Assembly (NCBI GenBank): GCA_001778495.1
Contig: MFHE01000010.1
Coordinates: 1 to 53,291, forward strand
DNA: 53,291 bases
Source: Candidatus Giovannonibacteria bacterium RIFCSPHIGHO2_01_FULL_45_24
GTDB lineage: Bacteria > Patescibacteriota > Minisyncoccia > UBA11713 > 2-01-FULL-45-33
Direction: 5' to 3'
A model generated the notes under the pieces. That model was not told the origin of the DNA. It saw only the letters and a program-made list of their open reading frames with translations, and ran no database searches. A program made the translations under genes and the position numbers. Positions 3,624 through 29,772 of the stretch are shown in pieces. The first letter of the stretch is position 1. Every line of letters starts with the position of its first letter.

Positions 3624-3676
3624 AAAACTAAGTAATTTTTACGGTTGGCTTCTTTTAGTAAAAATTACTTAGTTTT
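3624..3676 (-). terminator. 19-bp perfect AT-rich inverted repeat between rplL and the next gene (terminator/attenuator-like)
   Basis: aaaactaagtaatttttac (3624-3642) pairs exactly with gtaaaaattacttagtttt (3658-3676), with a 15-nt loop. Confidence 0.55.
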
Positions 3677-6031: not shown

Positions 6032-6739
6032 TTATCCCCAGAGCAGGGTGTATGCCGCAACGACGGAGGCGGTTTCGGAGCGCAATGTCAGACGACCCAA
6101 GGATATAATTTCAAAATTTGCGCGCCCTGCGGCGAAAATTTCGCGCTCTTCCCAGCCGCCTTCCGGGCCAACAAAAAGATTCATCTGCCTGTCACCCGCG
6201 CCGCGCATCATATTTTCTTTCTCGGAAACTGCTGCAAAATAAGTTTTTGCTCCCGAGAGCCCCGCTTGACCTACCGCCCGCTCAAAAAAAACAACCGGAT
6301 GCAATTTTGGGATTACCGCCCGCCCCGACTGCTCCGCGGCTTCTTTTAAAATCGCGGCACACCGCTCCGTATTTAAGCTTTTCTTTTCGGATCTGGCGGA
6401 TATTACCGGCGCGATCTCCGAAACCCCAATTTCTGTGGCTTTCTCCAAAACCCATTCAAACTTATCTTTTTTAACCAGCGATTGGTATAGAATCAATTTC
6501 TTTGATGGTTCACGGGTGTTTTCAAGTTTTTCCCTAAGCATAAGAGCTGCGGAGCCGGCTTCAATATTTTTGAGCTCAAAGACAAAATCAAAGCCGAGAT
6601 ACTCCGGAGCGCCGCTGAAAAACACGGCTTGTTCTCCTTTTCGAATTTTTAAAACGTCTCTAATCTGGTGAATTACCGAGCGGTCTCTCACCACCAAAAT
6701 TTCTTTATTTAATTCTTGCGGCAGATAAAACCTGTGCAT
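6032..6739 (-). CDS. rsmE: 16S rRNA (uracil1498-N3)-methyltransferase
   Basis: 235 aa, MHRFYLP... N-terminus and C-terminal GPEGGW..E motif. Confidence 0.88.
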   Translation of the reverse strand: MHRFYLPQELNKEILVVRDRSVIHQIRDVLKIRKGEQAVFFSGAPEYLGFDFVFELKNIEAGSAALMLREKLENTREPSKKLILYQSLVKKDKFEWVLEKATEIGVSEIAPVISARSEKKSLNTERCAAILKEAAEQSGRAVIPKLHPVVFFERAVGQAGLSGAKTYFAAVSEKENMMRGAGDRQMNLFVGPEGGWEEREIFAAGRANFEIISLGRLTLRSETASVVAAYTLLWG

Positions 6740-7419
6740 TATTTCGTATCAATAATTATAGTAAATTCTCCTCTTTGGCGCTCGCCCGTGAAGTGTTTTT
6801 GGGCTTCGGATAATTTGCCCCTGAAAATTTCTTCGTGAAGCTTTGTCAGCTCCCTGCCGATGTTTACATATCTATCGCCATTGGCCACTTCCAGCTCACG
6901 CAGAGTTTTTTGTACGCGGTGGGGCGACTCAAAAATAATTACCGGCATATTTATCTTGGCAACACGCCCGAAAAATGTCTGCCGGCCTTTTTTGCGCGGA
7001 GGGAAACCCAAAAAAATAAAATTACTTAAATCGATGTCGCTGGCGGACACTATAGCTGAAAGCGCCGAGGGCCCCGGGATCGGTATCACGGAAGCCGAGC
7101 TTCCACTTGGAAGTTCGGCTTCCAAGTAAGCGATGAGTTTGCGGCCCGGGTCGGAAATGCCCGGAGTTCCTGCGTCAGTGACTAGCGCCAAATTTTTGTT
7201 TTCTTTGATTAAATTTAGAATTTTTTCTAAAATTTTTGGAGATGAATGCTCTCGAAAAGAAATCGTCGGCTTGGAAATCCCGAGATGCGCCAGCAATTTT
7301 CTGGTTACTCTTGTGTCTTCAGCTAAAACAACATCAACTGATTTTAACGTTTCTATCGCGCGGAGCGTGACGTCTTTTAAATTCCCGATGGGCGTGGCTA
7401 CGATAAAGAGCTTTGGCAT
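6739..7419 (-). CDS. rsmI: 16S rRNA 2'-O-ribose C1402 methyltransferase (tetrapyrrole-methylase fold)
   Basis: Track ORF 6739..7539 trimmed to MPKLFIVATPIGNLKDVTLRA (ATG at 7419). DAGTPGISDPG and PGPSA motifs present. Confidence 0.88.
   Translation of the reverse strand: MPKLFIVATPIGNLKDVTLRAIETLKSVDVVLAEDTRVTRKLLAHLGISKPTISFREHSSPKILEKILNLIKENKNLALVTDAGTPGISDPGRKLIAYLEAELPSGSSASVIPIPGPSALSAIVSASDIDLSNFIFLGFPPRKKGRQTFFGRVAKINMPVIIFESPHRVQKTLRELEVANGDRYVNIGRELTKLHEEIFRGKLSEAQKHFTGERQRGEFTIIIDTK
7090..7127. repeat. REP-like palindromic element, about 1.5 copies, in-frame inside rsmI
   Basis: GGAAGCCGAGCTTCC (7090-7104) plus ACTTGGAAG-TTCGG-CTTCCAAGT (7105-7127). Translated in rsmI as LEAELPSGSSAS. 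Confidence 0.8.
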
Positions 7420-7450
7420 AAAAACATAGTAAACAAAAAACGCGGGTTTG

Positions 7451-8299
7451 TTAAGCACCGCGTTCGCGGAAGTAGTTGTCGCTGTATTTCCAAAAGAGCT
7501 TCTGAAGTTTTGAGGTAAGGGTATCCGGCCCGACCTCAAACGCGCGATAGATGATTTGCTTTATAGGCGTGATACCGCGAGTAGTGGAGGTAAAAAATGC
7601 CTCCCGGCAAAGTTTCAGAAGATCAATGCCAATTTCATACTCGGAGACTCTTTTGAAAAGTTCCGACCGCTGCGCCAAATCCAGAACAATTTTGCGCGTC
7701 ACACCTGCAAGCGCCCTGTTATGAGTATATGGCGTGATCAACCAATCGTCGGTAGTAATAAAAAACACGTTCTCATACGGCCCTTCCAAAATTCCGTCTA
7801 TGTGGTCGTAATAAAGAAAACTATCGTATCCCATCCCCTGTATTCTTTGTATATTTCTGTTAACCGTCCCGTAGTCGCATGCCAGTTTCAAATTCGGAAC
7901 CTTGCGTCGCTCCACTACAGTCATCAGACGCAGAGGTTTGGATTCGCTCTCTGTGAGCGGCCTGACATCCAAGGAAAGCTTGGGCGAGCCCGAGGGAGTT
8001 TTCATGTCATCCGAGTCCCCCGGCGTGACGAGTATACGAACCACCGAACGGTCATTGCCGTCTTTTTTCAAAAGGCACTCCGCTTTCGCCTTTATCTCCT
8101 GCCCGGAAGGCAGTTTCTCCCGCGGAATATATCCGTCGCAGCCCGCCATCAGGCGGCTCCAATGGTCATACCAATGGAAGAGAACCGCGCCCCGAGCGGC
8201 TAAAACTTCTATGACTCCGTCCGCCCGTTGCAGCCCCAAGTCATTCTGCCAAGAAATTTTTTCCCGCCAATCCCCTTCGCACCAGATAAGATTCTGCAT
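7451..8299 (-). CDS. Class IV (branched-chain/D-amino-acid/ADC-lyase type) aminotransferase
   Basis: Track ORF trimmed to MQNLIW (ATG at 8299), preceded by AAGGAGG 5 nt upstream. Confidence 0.78.
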   Translation of the reverse strand: MQNLIWCEGDWREKISWQNDLGLQRADGVIEVLAARGAVLFHWYDHWSRLMAGCDGYIPREKLPSGQEIKAKAECLLKKDGNDRSVVRILVTPGDSDDMKTPSGSPKLSLDVRPLTESESKPLRLMTVVERRKVPNLKLACDYGTVNRNIQRIQGMGYDSFLYYDHIDGILEGPYENVFFITTDDWLITPYTHNRALAGVTRKIVLDLAQRSELFKRVSEYEIGIDLLKLCREAFFTSTTRGITPIKQIIYRAFEVGPDTLTSKLQKLFWKYSDNYFRERGA

Positions 8300-16884: not shown

Positions 16885-19536
16885 TTATTTCTTCTCTAAA
16901 TTTTTGCGGTGCTCCCCCGTTCCTAACAAGCCACAACGTTTATACTTCTTTCCAGAACCGCACCAGCAGGGGTCATTGCGGCCCAGTTCGTCCTTTTTGT
17001 CAAAAGTTGAACTTCTGACATTTTGTTTAAATTCATTCGCAGGAGCGGGGCCGATTTTAAAAATCAAATTAGCGATGTAGGCGTTGATATGCCCTTCCAG
17101 CTGCTGGAACATTTTTGCGCCCTCGTTTTTGTATTCTACCAAAGCAACCCTTTGGCCGTAAACGCGAAGTTGTACGCTGGAACGCATGTATTCCATCGCC
17201 TCCAGATGCTCCATCCAAAGAGCGTCAATCGCCTGGAGCATGATTACGCGAAGCGCGTCGGCAAACCCCGCAACCTCCTTTTTTTGCTTGACGAATGCCG
17301 TTTCAATTTCTTTCTCCGCGAGCTCGGCCAGCTCTTCCATGCTTTCCATTTTCCCAACTCGCTCGCGGATATTAGAGAAATCTCCGCCGCCCAAAATGCT
17401 CGCCAAATTCTCCCCAATCTCTTTTTTGTTCCATTCTTCCGGCGAGCCCATGGTGTGTGCCTGGATAATCCTGCTCGCCACTTCTTTAAGCAAAGCCAAC
17501 GCCTCCTCCTCTATTTCTTCGGGCTTCGCGAAAAGCAGTTTTTTTCTCCGTGAATAAATCGCCGCCCTCTGCTTATTCATCACGTCGTCATACTCCAAAA
17601 CATGCTTTCTAGTGTCAAAGTTAAATCCCTCAATTTTCCCCTGCGCGGACTCAATCGCCCCCGACACCATTTTGTTTTCCACTGGCTCGTCTTCCGGAAT
17701 GCCGAGCTTGCCCATTAAATTTTTCACCCTCTCCGGCGCGAAAATTCGCATAAGGTCATCCTCCAAAGAAACAAAAAATTGCGTCCCGCCCGGGTCGCCC
17801 TGCCTGCCGGCTCTGCCCCGAAGCTGGTCGTCTATGCGGCGCGCTTCGTGCCGCTCCGTGCCGATGACAAGCAATCCGCCCACACTCCTGACTCTCTCGG
17901 CGTCTTCGGAAACCGCCGGGTTTCCTCCGAGAATTATGTCCACTCCCCGGCCGGCCATGTTGGTCGCGACGGTCACGGCCCTGAATCTCCCCGCCTGCGC
18001 GATAATCGCTCCTTCCTCCTCGTGATTTTTAGCGTTCAGCACTTTGTGTTCTACGCCTTCGCGCGAGAGGAGCGCGGAAAGTTTTTCATTTTTTTCAATT
18101 GAAACAGTGCCAATAAGCACGGGCTGGCCTTTTTCGTTTCTTGCTTTTATTTCGCGCGAGAGAGCTTGCCATTTCCCTTTTTCCGTCTGGAAAACTTTGT
18201 CCGGCAAATCGTTTCTTACCATGGGCTTATTCGTCGGGATCTCGGTGACATCCAAATTATATACTTTGTGGAATTCCTCGGCGGAAGTTTGCGCCGTGCC
18301 CGTCATCCCGGCCAGCTTTTTATACATCCTGAAATAATTTTGGAAAGTAATTGTCGCAAGCGTGCGGGATTCCTGCTGGACCCGCGCGCCTTCTTTGGCC
18401 TCAATGGCCTGGTGGAGCCCGTCCGACCACCTTCGCCCGGGCATCAAGCGACCGGTAAATTCATCAACAATGGTTACTTCCCCATTTTTTACGACATAAT
18501 CTTTGTCGCGCTGAAAAAGAGCGTGGGCGCGAAGCGCCTGCTCCAGATGATGCACATATCTCATCCCGCGCTCGGTGTAGATGTCTTTAAGCCCGAGCAT
18601 CTGCTCCACTTTTTCAATTCCGGATTCGGTCACGAGCGCCGTTTTCATTTTCTCATCAATATTATAATCCTCGTTTTCTTTAAGCCGCAGGACGATTCTT
18701 GAAAAAACTTTGTAAAGCTCGGCGGATTCGGCATCAGGAGTTGAGATAATCAACGGCGTCCGCGCTTCATCAATTAAAATTGAATCAACCTCGTCAACAA
18801 TCGCGAAATTGTGGCCGCGCTGGGCCATCTGGCTCGGAGCGTAAACCATATTGTCGCGCAGATAATCAAACCCGTACTCGTTGTTCGTCCCATAAGTGAC
18901 GTCGGCGGCGTATGCTTCGCGCCGGGGGCAGGGACGCAAAAATTCGTGAACAACTTTAAAAGCGCCCAATGTGTCGCGGGCTTGGTCTTTGGCGGTTAAA
19001 CCGCCATTTGGCGGTTTAACCGCCAAGTTCGCATCATATAAGTAACTTGCTTCATGATTCAAAACCCCCACGGATAACCCCAGCGCATTATATATCTGCC
19101 CCATCCAAACGGCGTCCCTCCGCGACAGATAGTCGTTGACCGTCACAATATGAACGCCTCCACCAGCTGGCGGGGCCGGAAGCGCGTTGATATAAGCCGG
19201 CAAAGTCGCAACTAAAGTTTTCCCTTCTCCGGTCTTCATCTCCGCGATTCCTCCTCTGTGGAGCACAATCCCGCCCATAAGCTGGGCGTCAAAATGCCTC
19301 TGGCCCAAAGTTCTTTTGGCGGCATCTCTTACGACGGCAAATGCTTCGGGAAGAATTTCATCAAGCCACGCGCCGTCCTCCAACCGTTTTCTGAATTCCG
19401 CTGTTTTATTTTTTAGTTCCTCATCAGAAAGTTTTTGGACTCCATTTTCCAGATTGTTTATTTCTTCAACAATCGGCCGGAGCTCGTCTACGGCTCTTTC
19501 ATTTGAGCCCCCAAAAATTTTCCCAAAAAATGACAT
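16885..19536 (-). CDS. secA: Preprotein translocase ATPase SecA
   Basis: 883 aa. MKTGEGKTLV Walker A, VDEVDSILIDEARTPLIIS DEAD-like motif, C-terminal zinc motif CWCGSGKKYKRC. Confidence 0.98.
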   Translation of the reverse strand: MSFFGKIFGGSNERAVDELRPIVEEINNLENGVQKLSDEELKNKTAEFRKRLEDGAWLDEILPEAFAVVRDAAKRTLGQRHFDAQLMGGIVLHRGGIAEMKTGEGKTLVATLPAYINALPAPPAGGGVHIVTVNDYLSRRDAVWMGQIYNALGLSVGVLNHEASYLYDANLAVKPPNGGLTAKDQARDTLGAFKVVHEFLRPCPRREAYAADVTYGTNNEYGFDYLRDNMVYAPSQMAQRGHNFAIVDEVDSILIDEARTPLIISTPDAESAELYKVFSRIVLRLKENEDYNIDEKMKTALVTESGIEKVEQMLGLKDIYTERGMRYVHHLEQALRAHALFQRDKDYVVKNGEVTIVDEFTGRLMPGRRWSDGLHQAIEAKEGARVQQESRTLATITFQNYFRMYKKLAGMTGTAQTSAEEFHKVYNLDVTEIPTNKPMVRNDLPDKVFQTEKGKWQALSREIKARNEKGQPVLIGTVSIEKNEKLSALLSREGVEHKVLNAKNHEEEGAIIAQAGRFRAVTVATNMAGRGVDIILGGNPAVSEDAERVRSVGGLLVIGTERHEARRIDDQLRGRAGRQGDPGGTQFFVSLEDDLMRIFAPERVKNLMGKLGIPEDEPVENKMVSGAIESAQGKIEGFNFDTRKHVLEYDDVMNKQRAAIYSRRKKLLFAKPEEIEEEALALLKEVASRIIQAHTMGSPEEWNKKEIGENLASILGGGDFSNIRERVGKMESMEELAELAEKEIETAFVKQKKEVAGFADALRVIMLQAIDALWMEHLEAMEYMRSSVQLRVYGQRVALVEYKNEGAKMFQQLEGHINAYIANLIFKIGPAPANEFKQNVRSSTFDKKDELGRNDPCWCGSGKKYKRCGLLGTGEHRKNLEKK
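18989..19026. repeat. 38-bp nested palindrome inside secA
   Basis: ttggcggttaaaccgcca-tt-tggcggtttaaccgccaa gives 18 perfect mirror pairs. Each half also contains GGCGG-N5-CCGCC. Translated as LAVKPPNGGLTAK. Confidence 0.85.
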
Positions 19537-20669: not shown

Positions 20670-20751
20670 AAAACAACACAAAGCCCTGGAAATTCCAGGG
20701 CTTTGTGCAGACATAGATTGCAGTCCCGCCGAGGCGGGACAACACTCACAT
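20668..20751 (-). ncRNA. Candidate ~85-nt sRNA or attenuator leader: two hairpins, the second terminator-like
   Basis: Hairpin gtcccgcc-gag-gcgggac (20723-20740). Hairpin aaagccctggaa/ttccagggcttt (20680-20704) is followed on the minus strand by GUGUUGUUUU. Sits directly downstream of the 20758-20785 promoter. Confidence 0.4.
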
Positions 20752-20786: not shown

Positions 20787-21794
20787 TTATTTATCCACAA
20801 AGCGGCTGTAGTAGCCCCTGTCCGCTTTAAGCGCCTCGCGGCCGGTGTATTGGTACTTAAATCCATAGTTTGTAATTTTTGAGCCGTCAACGATAATCGG
20901 GTAAGTGTAAGAATTGATGCCCGCCGGGACCGTTGGAATCCTCCCCCGCGAAAGGTGCCACAGCGCGCCGAAACAGAGTTTCCCCAGCCGCATCGGCACT
21001 CTTATTGAGAGCTTGCCGATTTCTTTCGCCATATCTTTCAGCAAAAAGAAGTCGGCTGGGGCGATGTTGAATATCTCGTATTTTGAAGATGCACCTCCGC
21101 CGGCCATAAACCGGACGGCATCCCAAATATCGTCTTCGTGAACAAACTGCCTCGCGGAATCCGGCCCGGTGACGGGCACAACCGGGAGGCCGAATTTCAT
21201 CGCACGCAGAAGCCCGAAGCGCTTGAACGCAAACTGACCCCGTGGACCCGTGATGGCGCAGGGGCGGAACACCAAAACCTGCGTCGCGGAAAACGCATAA
21301 AACGCGGCTTTTAGTTTTTCTTCAATTATTTTCTTATCCACGCCGTAAAGATACTTCTCCTCGCGGAAAGAGTCTGATTCTTTGAATTTATAGTTCGTGG
21401 AATTCTCGGGAAGCGCGCCATAAGAAGCAACGGTTGAAAAATGTATGAGCCGCGGTATTTTGTTTTTTGAAACAAAATCAAAAACCCTCTCCGCCGCCGT
21501 AACATTAGATTTTATCTGCCATGCCCTTTTTTTGCCGTAGCCCTCGCGGATGACATAAGCGCAGTGTATCACCAAATCCGGCCTGCCCTCGGCCAAAACT
21601 TTTTCTTCCCAGCCGGGGTCGCCAAGATTGTGCTGTACAAAAGCAATCCGATTGCTACTTAGCAATCGGATTGCTAAGTTGGATGGAGCCTTCATATCCA
21701 AAGCGATTATTTTTTCAACTTCCGGATTTTCATCAAAGCGGTCAGCGAGCATCCCGCCTATGTATCCCGACGTTCCGGTTATAAAAATTTTCAT
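20787..21794 (-). CDS. NAD-dependent epimerase/dehydratase (SDR) family protein
   Basis: 335 aa with MKIFITGTSGYIGG Rossmann motif. Confidence 0.85.
   Translation of the reverse strand: MKIFITGTSGYIGGMLADRFDENPEVEKIIALDMKAPSNLAIRLLSSNRIAFVQHNLGDPGWEEKVLAEGRPDLVIHCAYVIREGYGKKRAWQIKSNVTAAERVFDFVSKNKIPRLIHFSTVASYGALPENSTNYKFKESDSFREEKYLYGVDKKIIEEKLKAAFYAFSATQVLVFRPCAITGPRGQFAFKRFGLLRAMKFGLPVVPVTGPDSARQFVHEDDIWDAVRFMAGGGASSKYEIFNIAPADFFLLKDMAKEIGKLSIRVPMRLGKLCFGALWHLSRGRIPTVPAGINSYTYPIIVDGSKITNYGFKYQYTGREALKADRGYYSRFVDK
20791..20799 (+). promoter_or_regulatory. Perfect DnaA-box 9-mer (TTATCCACA on plus strand) within the last codons of the epimerase gene
   Basis: Read directly from the sequence. 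Confidence 0.3.
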
Positions 21795-28881: not shown

Positions 28882-29049
28882 GGTTTAAATAATAACAAAA
28901 GCAAAACCCAAGGCAAGGGAAAAGAAAAAGGCCCGGGGTTGAGAGATTCGTCGCGTAGTTAGTCCGTCTGTCCAGCTTGGATCTGGTTTTTCTGTTTTTG
29001 CTGGCTCCTCGATTTTTGTCAAGCGCGCGTGGTAATGCTCTGCCCGGCA

Positions 29050-29076
29050 GCACTTGGAAGCCGGACTTCCAAGTGC
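29050..29076 (+). repeat. REP-like perfect hairpin, left flank
   Basis: GCACTTGGAAG-CCGGA-CTTCCAAGTGC: 11-bp arms and a 5-nt loop. Confidence 0.9.
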
Positions 29077-29088
29077 TAATATGGCAAT

Positions 29089-29733
29089 ATGAGAAAAGAA
29101 GTATTTGCCGTTGGCAAATTTTATCATATCTACAACCGCGGGACTGATAAGCGAAAGATTTTCCTAGATAAATACGACTTTGAGCGATTCCTGCAAAGCA
29201 TGCAAGAATTTAATACGCTAGAACCAATAGGTAGTATTTATGAAAATTCTTTCGTAAAAGATCAACTTGGGAGTTCGGCTTCCAAGCAACGCAAATTAGT
29301 AAATTGCGTGGCTTATTGCCTTAATCCAAATCACTATCATTTTATTCTTCAGCAAACCAAAGAAAGAGGCGTAGAAAAATTTATGCAAAGACTCGGCACT
29401 GGTTTTACAAACTATTTTAATAATAAATACCACCGCAGTGGAGTATTGTTTCAGGGCAAATTTAAATCTCGCCATATTGACTCCAATGAGTATCTTTTAC
29501 ATATAAGCGCTTATGTAAATTTAAACGACCGCATCCACCGATTTGGGAGTTCGGCTTCCAAGTCGAGTTGGATAGAGTATGTAGAAAAACAAAAAGGGAT
29601 TTGTGAGAAAAAAATAATCCTAGATCAATTTGGAAACGTTGCGGAGTATAAAGCTTTTGCGGAAAGCTCGCTCAAAGACATATTGGCACGCAAACAACTT
29701 TACAAAGAGCTGGAAATATTACTGTTTGATTAA
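29089..29733 (+). CDS. HUH/Y1 single-strand DNA transposase, IS200-like / REP-associated (RAYT-like)
   Basis: 214 aa. N-terminal FYHIYNRG, HUH motif NPNHYHFIL, C-terminal Tyr region (EYLLHISAYVNLN). Confidence 0.78.
   Translation: MRKEVFAVGKFYHIYNRGTDKRKIFLDKYDFERFLQSMQEFNTLEPIGSIYENSFVKDQLGSSASKQRKLVNCVAYCLNPNHYHFILQQTKERGVEKFMQRLGTGFTNYFNNKYHRSGVLFQGKFKSRHIDSNEYLLHISAYVNLNDRIHRFGSSASKSSWIEYVEKQKGICEKKIILDQFGNVAEYKAFAESSLKDILARKQLYKELEILLFD
29266..29286 (+). repeat. REP-like hairpin copy inside the transposase ORF (internal copy 1)
   Basis: CTTGGGAG-TTCGG-CTTCCAAG, translated as LGSSASK. Confidence 0.85.
29543..29563 (+). repeat. REP-like hairpin copy inside the transposase ORF (internal copy 2)
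   Basis: TTGGGAG-TTCGG-CTTCCAAGT; 29542-29562 matches copy 1 at 20 of 21 positions. Translated as FGSSASK. Confidence 0.85.
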
Positions 29734-29772
29734 CTTGGAAGCCGGACTTCCAAGTGCATCTTCCAAGTGCAT
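29733..29772 (+). repeat. REP-like hairpin, right flank, plus a 13-nt tandem duplication
   Basis: ACTTGGAAG-CCGGA-CTTCCAAGTGC (29733-29757) starts in the TAA stop codon. CTTCCAAGTGCAT occurs twice (29747-29759, 29760-29772). Confidence 0.9.

Follow-up and report, generated by a model that had tools for sequence, protein, structure and literature searches.

What is a perfect 38-bp palindrome doing inside secA, an essential gene, in an ultra-small and gene-dense bacterial genome? The question is raised by positions 18989-19026 of a 53,291-nucleotide stretch of Candidatus Giovannonibacteria bacterium RIFCSPHIGHO2_01_FULL_45_24 (contig MFHE01000010.1; C10:1-53291, hereafter the window), which belongs to a 531-kb genome in 14 contigs (G000) that is ~90% coding and whose assembly is 90% complete. 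The palindrome is neither a chance product nor unique. In all likelihood, it is an intragenic, translated inverted doublet akin to repetitive extragenic palindromic (REP) elements and to REP doublets forming hairpins (REPINs); its subfamily, GGCGG-TTWAA, is part of a Patescibacteria-wide hairpin superfamily with 23-nt units of the form ACTTRG-N11-CYAAGT.

The palindrome is accurately described in the initial annotation, which reported 18 of 18 mirrored pairs around a 2-nt centre and a hairpin in each half. An inverted-repeat search returned TTGGCGGTTAAACCGCCA-TT-TGGCGGTTTAACCGCCAA at 18989-19026, with 18-nt arms that are 100% complementary and 2 nt between them, and both halves are GGCGG-N5-CCGCC hairpins. 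The gene, the element and its parts are as follows, in window coordinates; lines without a strand describe features to which none is assigned.

16885-19536, minus strand: secA, 883 amino acids, intact; the element lies in a lineage-variable insertion of nucleotide-binding domain 1 (NBD1) between the GLSVG and REAYAAD blocks
18989-19026: 38-bp perfect palindrome made of two REP-type cores in an inverted doublet with one shared middle foot, similar to a REPIN or a bacterial interspersed mosaic element (BIME); from repeat search and folding
18987-18990, plus-strand reading: degenerate left foot CTTT
18991-19005: core A, GGCGGTTAAACCGCC, GGCGG-TTAAA-CCGCC, with a 5-bp stem and a 5-nt loop; identical cores at C2:44142 and C14:59696
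19006-19009: middle foot ATTT (canonical ACTT/AAGT); AAGT on the coding strand in the relatives P0003 and P0004
19010-19024: core B, GGCGGTTTAACCGCC, GGCGG-TTTAA-CCGCC, the reverse complement of core A
19025-19028: canonical outer foot AAGT; on the coding strand AACTT followed by GG, with the conserved C-T dinucleotide adjoining the hairpin
18988-19026, minus strand: codons for SecA residues 171-183, LAVKPPNGGLTAK; frames read from the sequence

Only one frame through the doublet in secA is free of stops, the other two meeting TAA in the loops, and the SecA of G000 retains all SecA Pfam domains.

Other copies exist in the genome, as a search proposed in the initial annotation revealed. The core GGCGGTTWAACCGCC occurs in 8 copies at 5 places in G000, 7 of them identical over 15 nt, and the reversed pattern, serving as control, occurs 0 times; the canonical unit of the subfamily is ACTT-GGCGGTTWAACCGCC-AAGT. 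All 5 loci lie in frame within Pfam-confirmed genes, namely secA, uvrC (twice), ksgA and a GT2 gene, and the copies outside secA are these:

uvrC, in frame, Pfam-confirmed: doublet AVKPPLGGLTAK and a single unit, LAVKPPSK
ksgA/rsmA, in frame, Pfam-confirmed: doublet AVKPPSGGLTAK
GT2 glycosyltransferase, in frame, Pfam-confirmed: single unit, LGGLTAK

A census of perfect hairpins further uncovered a superfamily of 23-nt palindromes, ACTT[AG]G-N11-C[CT]AAGT, at ~31 sites in G000, ~22 of the 31 lying in open reading frames (ORFs) of at least 140 amino acids. Its inner stems in this genome include GGAAG, GGACG, AGACG, AGCAAT, GCTGT and GGCGG, and doublets, which recur in several genomes, are built alike across the subfamilies, from a core, a 4-nt foot (ACTT or AAGT) and an inverted core. 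Because the feet ACTTRG...CYAAGT, the 23-nt length, the 5-nt loop and the 19-nt doublet period are all held in common, the GGCGG hairpin is a subfamily of the CTTGGAAG superfamily, contrary to the initial proposal that the two are unrelated. The accompanying claim of a second type of in-frame palindromic element in an essential gene stands in part: the element is in frame and secA is essential, but it represents a subfamily with its own enzyme specificity rather than a second kind. In a survey of the host's family, the superfamily was present in 20 of 20 genomes, with controls near zero, and it extends to few other families of the class.

The reading frames used by the repeats are also highly restricted. 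Of 99 exact units in other genomes, 43 fall within ORFs of 150 or more amino acids; 41 of these read LAVKPP or GGLTAK and 2 use the stop-free frame WR[LF]NRQ, counts that are not fully independent because some of the sites are orthologous. Within doublets, TTAAA precedes TTTAA nearly always and CCGGA precedes TCCGG in 6 of 6 (exceptions at L132 and at G001 289776); this order, constrained by stop codons in the GGCGG type, was not used as evidence.

The link to a transposase is found in relatives. The exact 19-mer TTGGCGGTTWAACCGCCAA was sought in a scan of one genome per species and found in 83 stretches, nearly all from Patescibacteria (Giovannoni-, Nomura-, Campbell-, Zambryski- and Kaiserbacteria, and bins labelled Saccharibacteria), the ~4 matches outside the Candidate Phyla Radiation (CPR) being roughly at chance level. 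The first 80 of these 83 stretches were examined, and 11 contain a gene for a REP-associated tyrosine transposase (RAYT), typically with the hairpin on both flanks as well as within the gene. In G013, a 217-amino-acid Y1_Tnp protein (PF01797, E = 1e-8) is encoded with ACTTGGCGGTTTAACCGCCAAGT on the left flank, in frame inside the gene (HQLGGLTAKL) and on the right flank, while G009 carries an orthologous RAYT gene with GGCGGTGSCACCGCC at the left flank, inside (HKLGGATAKL) and at the right flank. Of the 20 family genomes, 19 have RAYT genes; the one without them is an assembly of only 79% completeness. G000 possesses five Y1_Tnp (RAYT-like) genes, including the following one in the window:

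29089-29733, plus strand: RAYT-like Y1 transposase, with GGAAG-type hairpins on either side at 29049-29077 and 29733-29755

This enzyme is a paralogue, sharing 55-56% identity with the cognate transposase of the secA hairpin in relatives. A comparison of the RAYT with solved structures by sequence gave only spurious gasdermin matches above E = 0.01, which were ignored.

The site that holds the doublet in SecA was compared across 30 relatives and 120 database homologues, among which the segment from YLYD to RDxxGxF ranges from ~14 to 50 residues. The initial annotation gave this segment as much longer than in E. coli, and structural alignment agrees: the matches to SecA structures of E. coli and B. 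subtilis fall into two pieces that leave the segment out. Thermotoga maritima SecA (3DIN, 3JUX, 4YS0) carries an insertion at the same NBD1 spot. An AlphaFold2 model of the G000 protein has a mean predicted local distance difference test (pLDDT) score of 69 and forms coil here, with pLDDT <50 at residues 173-181 and 184-191. Length variation and low-pLDDT coil together indicate that the site is permissive, and the segment with the secA copy is both hypervariable and, by prediction, disordered. In G013, an unrelated hairpin, GACCCTCGCCTTG-ttttg-CAAGGCGAGGGTC, with a 13-bp stem occupies the same SecA loop (L008), so that different hairpin families share the permissive spot. Additionally, a second small insertion of 4 amino acids is present in secA at 19155-19178 (codons PAPPAGGG), only in G000, G001, G011 and partly G038. 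It is an imperfect palindrome, CCGCCAGCTGGTGG, that in G011 is perfect (CTCCGCCA-ac-TGGCGGAG), and it resembles the central part (CCGCCA-nn-TGGCGG, PPxGG) of a GGCGG-type doublet that has decayed.

The initial annotation proposed checking relatives for an indel at this exact position, and one does exist. G001, the complete sister genome from the same genus, was fetched whole and each hairpin site of G000 was aligned to it; its SecA reads DPEHKELDQ at the site and is 27 nt shorter than that of G000. Since PEHKELD[QK] occurs in three lineages and a similar form in outgroups, the shorter form represents the older state. Insert-bearing alleles (P0001-4, the G009 group, P0011, P0027 and P0034) are scattered on the SecA tree, whose well-supported, starred branches force at least three changes of insert state. 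A single clade of insert-bearing alleles is rejected by the approximately unbiased (AU) test (p = 1e-4), in which the insert-bearing group was named after the tree had been seen. Every such allele begins with xAC TTG GCG in the same codon phase, and in P0011 both arms are altered, yet a perfect 14-bp long stem is kept. In none of the first 80 of the 83 stretches with the 19-mer does the element lie in secA. The chance or ancestral sequence held out as an alternative in the initial annotation does not agree with 8 cores at 5 loci, with a closest relative that lacks the residues, or with relatives that have the residues and encode them by the same palindromic codons.

The element is also constrained at the level of DNA. 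Third codon positions of G000 and P0003 are 45% divergent across secA and differ at 0 of 13 positions in the element (P = 4e-4), while P0004 and G009 differ from G000 at 1 of 13 and 2 of 13, respectively. This comparison of sequences shows that the DNA of the element has been kept far more constant than nearby synonymous sites. In the G009 element, which carries seven differences, three of them give unit 1 the loop TGGCA, that of the RAYT-linked hairpins of G009 itself, and unit 2 stays TTTAA.

Comparison of the two sister genomes demonstrated turnover at fixed sites. Hairpin sites that are identical in G000 and G001 are of the GGAAG type, for which both genomes have a RAYT, and sites occupied in G000 and not in G001 comprise secA, rsmI, ksgA and C7:47341. 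At further orthologous sites, the cores differ:

uvrC N-terminal site: TTAAA/TTTAA in G000 versus CTAAG/CTTAG in G001, equal length
C2:60525: GGACG doublet in G000 versus GGCGG doublet in G001, equal length
C10:21659 (window 21642-21679, an AGCAAT-type doublet in a 335-amino-acid ORF, 20787-21794, minus strand): AGCAAT in G000 versus a GGCAAC-type doublet at the orthologous site in G001, equal length
Orthologous RAYT flanks: GGCTGT versus GGCAAC, equal length

The ten units that differ between the two genomes show 16 compensated stem changes and 6 one-sided ones. At 29543-29561, the hairpin lying in frame within the RAYT gene reads GGGAG-TTCGG-CTTCC in G000 and GGAAG-CCGAG-CTTCC in G001, between flanks that are >93% identical, and the unit has apparently been flipped or replaced at its site. 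Two KsgA loops (ksgA at C14:59249-60019 in G000, and loci L057-L059) are likewise hairpin hot spots at which the family differs by genome. At site 1, G000 carries the GGCGG doublet and G002 a CCCCTCCTT hairpin. At site 2, G000 and G009 carry an AGACG unit, identical between them at 23 of 23 nt despite diverged flanks, and G001 and G002 carry hairpins of the CCCCTCTTA type. G000 and G009 share an identical GT2 unit with the loop TTTAA; the same site in G001 has TGAAA. This one-base loop variant (not TTWAA) recurs in dispersed GGCGG-type units of G001 at 211005, 487517 and 572454, and is a concerted change within a genome that has no cognate RAYT.

A mechanism consistent with these observations may be proposed. 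A RAYT would bind the folded hairpin on single-stranded DNA and thereby spread or renew units; published TnpA-REP behaviour suggests that it would cut at the conserved C-T step of the AC-TT foot and rejoin the strands (PMC8266576; PMC3333891). The putative single-stranded substrate of the cognate RAYT, of the G013 or G009 type, is ACTTGGCGGTTAAACCGCCAAGT. Purifying selection would then keep copies only in permissive loops, in a stop-free frame and with a benign peptide (LAVKPP or GGLTAK), and SecA would simply tolerate 13 extra loop residues. The secA copy is either a stranded orphan or served by paralogous RAYTs with the same feet. An IS608-like model, in which a 19-nt mobile unit is inserted 3' of ACTT, was rejected; it predicts that both outer feet are canonical, and only a minority of doublets are so.

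More tentatively, units may be rewritten in place, with a resident RAYT exchanging the 15-nt core between AC-TT feet or flipping it. Such rewriting fits the equal-length doublets of different subfamilies at G000 and G001 sites, the excess of compensated over one-sided changes, the flipped RAYT hairpin and the loop of unit 1 in the G009 secA element. If it occurs, the loop peptides of SecA, UvrC, KsgA and other proteins would change in concert, tracking the resident transposase rather than the species tree. The same evidence of turnover would also fit repeated independent insertion at hot spots, or palindrome-templated repair.

Several observations weigh against regarding the secA palindrome as a RAYT-mobilized repeat. 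A clean empty site was sought by comparing G001 and G002 with G000, P0003 and P0004, and none could be reconstructed, several alignments being possible and none compelling; nor was a target-site duplication visible between filled and empty secA sites. Insert-bearing alleles replace host codons (EHKEL), so that the net gain is 27 nt for an element of 38-42 nt, and the same net gain for an element of that size is seen at C7:47341. The copy number, at 8 cores, is low, and the GTAG tag and extragenic location that define REP elements are absent. The biochemistry of RAYTs comes from E. coli, Stenotrophomonas and Marinomonas enzymes rather than from this clade (PMC8266576). A tblastn search with the G013 enzyme retrieved 5 homologues from G000 and 6 from G001, and GGCGG hairpins flank none of them; G001 contains GGCGG-type units all the same. 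With no cognate RAYT in either genome, the GGCGG copies are orphaned in the genus, and their present-day mobility in G000 is unproven; a cognate gene missing from G000 is not fully excluded by an assembly that is 90% complete, but the complete G001 lacks one as well. A clear case of a hairpin subfamily becoming orphaned is provided by the AGCAAT-type RAYT of G001 (435950-436700), lost in G000 through a ~630-bp deletion that left the flanking hairpins at C6:29846-29945. Furthermore, in its downstream secA flank G000 resembles P0004 more closely than it does G001, and part of the patchy distribution in secA may reflect homologous recombination between lineages rather than transposition.

Taken to its end, that argument makes the secA doublet an immobile fossil, no longer acted on by any enzyme, whose low divergence and patchiness arise only from short stretches of secA spreading laterally by homologous recombination among co-occurring Giovannonibacteria. 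This is a possible, though doubtful, account. The missing cognate RAYT accords with it, as do the mosaic flanks of the G000 allele, closest upstream to G001 and downstream to P0004, and the boundaries shared, down to the loss of EHKEL, by the insert alleles of the Giovannonibacteria clade (P0001-P0004 and the G009 group). A fossil would not be expected to show the loop of the resident RAYT-linked hairpins in unit 1 of the G009 element beside an unchanged TTTAA in unit 2, the replacement of whole compensated cores at equal length between G000 and G001 (16 pairs versus 6 one-sided), or the hairpin flipped inside a RAYT gene between the same two genomes.

It is improbable that the hairpins are retained for cellular use, as DNA sites or mRNA stem-loops. 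For REP and BIME sites of E. coli, binding of gyrase and IHF has been reported, as have effects on mRNA decay. A host-selected structure would account for the conservation of DNA beyond synonymous expectation, for the pairing kept through turnover, and for identical units at orthologous sites across genera (ksgA site 2, GT2 and the uvrC C-terminal site). It agrees poorly with the free gain and loss of sites between sister genomes, with the filling of the same loops by different hairpin families in different genomes, and with copies at varied positions in unrelated genes, and the tight link to RAYT genes fits a selfish origin.

A regulatory hairpin or translational pause specific to secA, in which the mRNA stem and a PPN motif tune SecA synthesis or folding, is very unlikely. 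The fold itself is strong: energies were compared with those of 200 shuffles, and the palindrome forms one long stem of -34.1 kcal/mol as RNA (z = -7.3) and folds with -23.4 kcal/mol as DNA (z = -7.8), with 0 of 200 shuffles as good in either case. KPPN, moreover, is rich in proline, and motifs of this sort can slow ribosomes. However, the same sequence recurs in uvrC, ksgA and the GT2 gene, SecA of the same genus exists without the element, and an Rfam search of the element found no family, the best hits scoring 18 and 14 bits where the gathering cut-offs are 60 and 39. An origin by chance or in situ, for instance through template switching in host sequence, is barely credible, as is an artefact of assembly: template switching can produce palindromes, but chance would yield only ~7e-6 (~1e-5) such palindromes in the window by hand arithmetic (~53,000 positions x ~9 spacer lengths x 0.25^18), identical 15-nt cores stand at 5 G000 loci and in dozens of independent assemblies, and the element recurs in independently assembled SecA alleles with the reading frame intact.

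Other palindromes in the window were recorded as well:

7079-7134: GGAAG-type doublet of the same superfamily in an ORF at 6739-7539 (minus strand); absent from the sister genome
20677-20707: perfect 15+15 palindrome, CACAAAGCCCTGGAA-a-TTCCAGGGCTTTGTG, in a short spacer between two minus-strand ORFs; its type differs from the ACTTRG family
3624-3676: AT-rich inverted repeat with perfect 19-nt arms, AAAACTAAGTAATTTTTAC / GTAAAAATTACTTAGTTTT, separated by 15 nt

The palindrome at 20677-20707 could be a terminator or another repeat family, and a hairpin at C12:2779, ACAAAGCC...GGCTTTGT, is similar to it.

REP elements are defined as extragenic; the mechanism by which they spread is still unsettled, and the function of RAYTs in vivo is debated. 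In the gene-dense, ultra-small genomes considered here, a RAYT-linked hairpin family is located mainly inside essential genes and is translated. The copies constitute a natural record of protein loops that tolerate insertion, one of them in the motor domain of SecA, as well as of accepted peptide frames (LAVKPP and GGLTAK; almost never WRLNRQ) and of core turnover at fixed sites. For annotation, they account for odd 'low-complexity' loop inserts in CPR housekeeping proteins. Should the cores prove to be exchanged in place by a transposase, short segments of many proteins would be subject to concerted editing, and a tractable route to studying RAYT activity would become available.

The nearest known systems are the REP, BIME and REPIN elements with their RAYT (TnpA-REP) enzymes (Nunvar 2010, PMC2817692; Bertels & Rainey 2011, PMC3116915; Ton-Hoang 2012, PMC3333891; Corneloup 2021, PMC8266576). 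Like these, the present family consists of short perfect hairpins, 23 nt long as in the group-3 REPs of Stenotrophomonas, with dispersed near-identical copies, inverted doublets and a C-T dinucleotide adjoining the hairpin, the step at which the RAYTs of E. coli, Stenotrophomonas and Marinomonas cleave (PMC8266576). Relatives (G013, L047; G009, L048; 11 of 80 loci) have a Y1/HUH gene flanked by the same hairpin, and for the GGCGG subfamily such a gene is found in neither G000 nor G001. As in group-3 RAYT systems, the subfamilies differ in the loop and upper stem, the reported determinants of recognition. Unlike REPs, these hairpins have no GTAG (or CGTC) tag; their foot is ACTTRG, which on either side belongs to the palindrome itself, and its TTAG/TTGG is only loosely GTAG-like. 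Most copies are intragenic and translated, their number is very low (8 subfamily cores, ~31 superfamily sites), and the host is an ultra-small Patescibacteria genome without the cognate RAYT. In the searchable literature, nothing was found on RAYT or REP in Patescibacteria.

Intragenic REPs have been described by Di Nocera et al. (2013, PMC3733652), with copies in uvrA and uvrB included. As there, units and dimers lie inside known genes, DNA repair genes among them (here uvrC, twice), and are translated; in that study, however, the families are large and extragenic, with a minority of copies inside genes, whereas here such copies form the majority and sit at orthologous hot spots with differing cores in sister genomes. 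Rickettsia palindromic elements (RPEs; Ogata et al. 2000), so far as they are described in PMC3733652, resemble the present family as in-frame palindromic repeats in housekeeping genes of a reduced genome, adding loop peptides while function is kept. In the same account, the RPE-1 type measures ~100-150 bp and is given no known transposase, unlike the RAYT-linked units of 19-23 nt and doublets of 38-42 nt described here. Membership among the RPEs was rejected, as the 38-nt element falls short of ~100-150 bp, is found in Patescibacteria only and bears no sequence relation to the Rickettsia family. [quoted passage not shown] TnpA-REP subclass 2.4 of Quentin et al. (2018, PMC6006769), in which a REP lies inside the tnpA-REP gene, is known from Cyanobacteria, Bacteroidetes and various other phyla, and the RAYTs of G013 and G009 resemble it in having one in-frame hairpin copy within the cognate gene. 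By its tag and its location, the secA palindrome is not a plain member of the REP class; it is a known kind of element, REP-like, in an unusual place.

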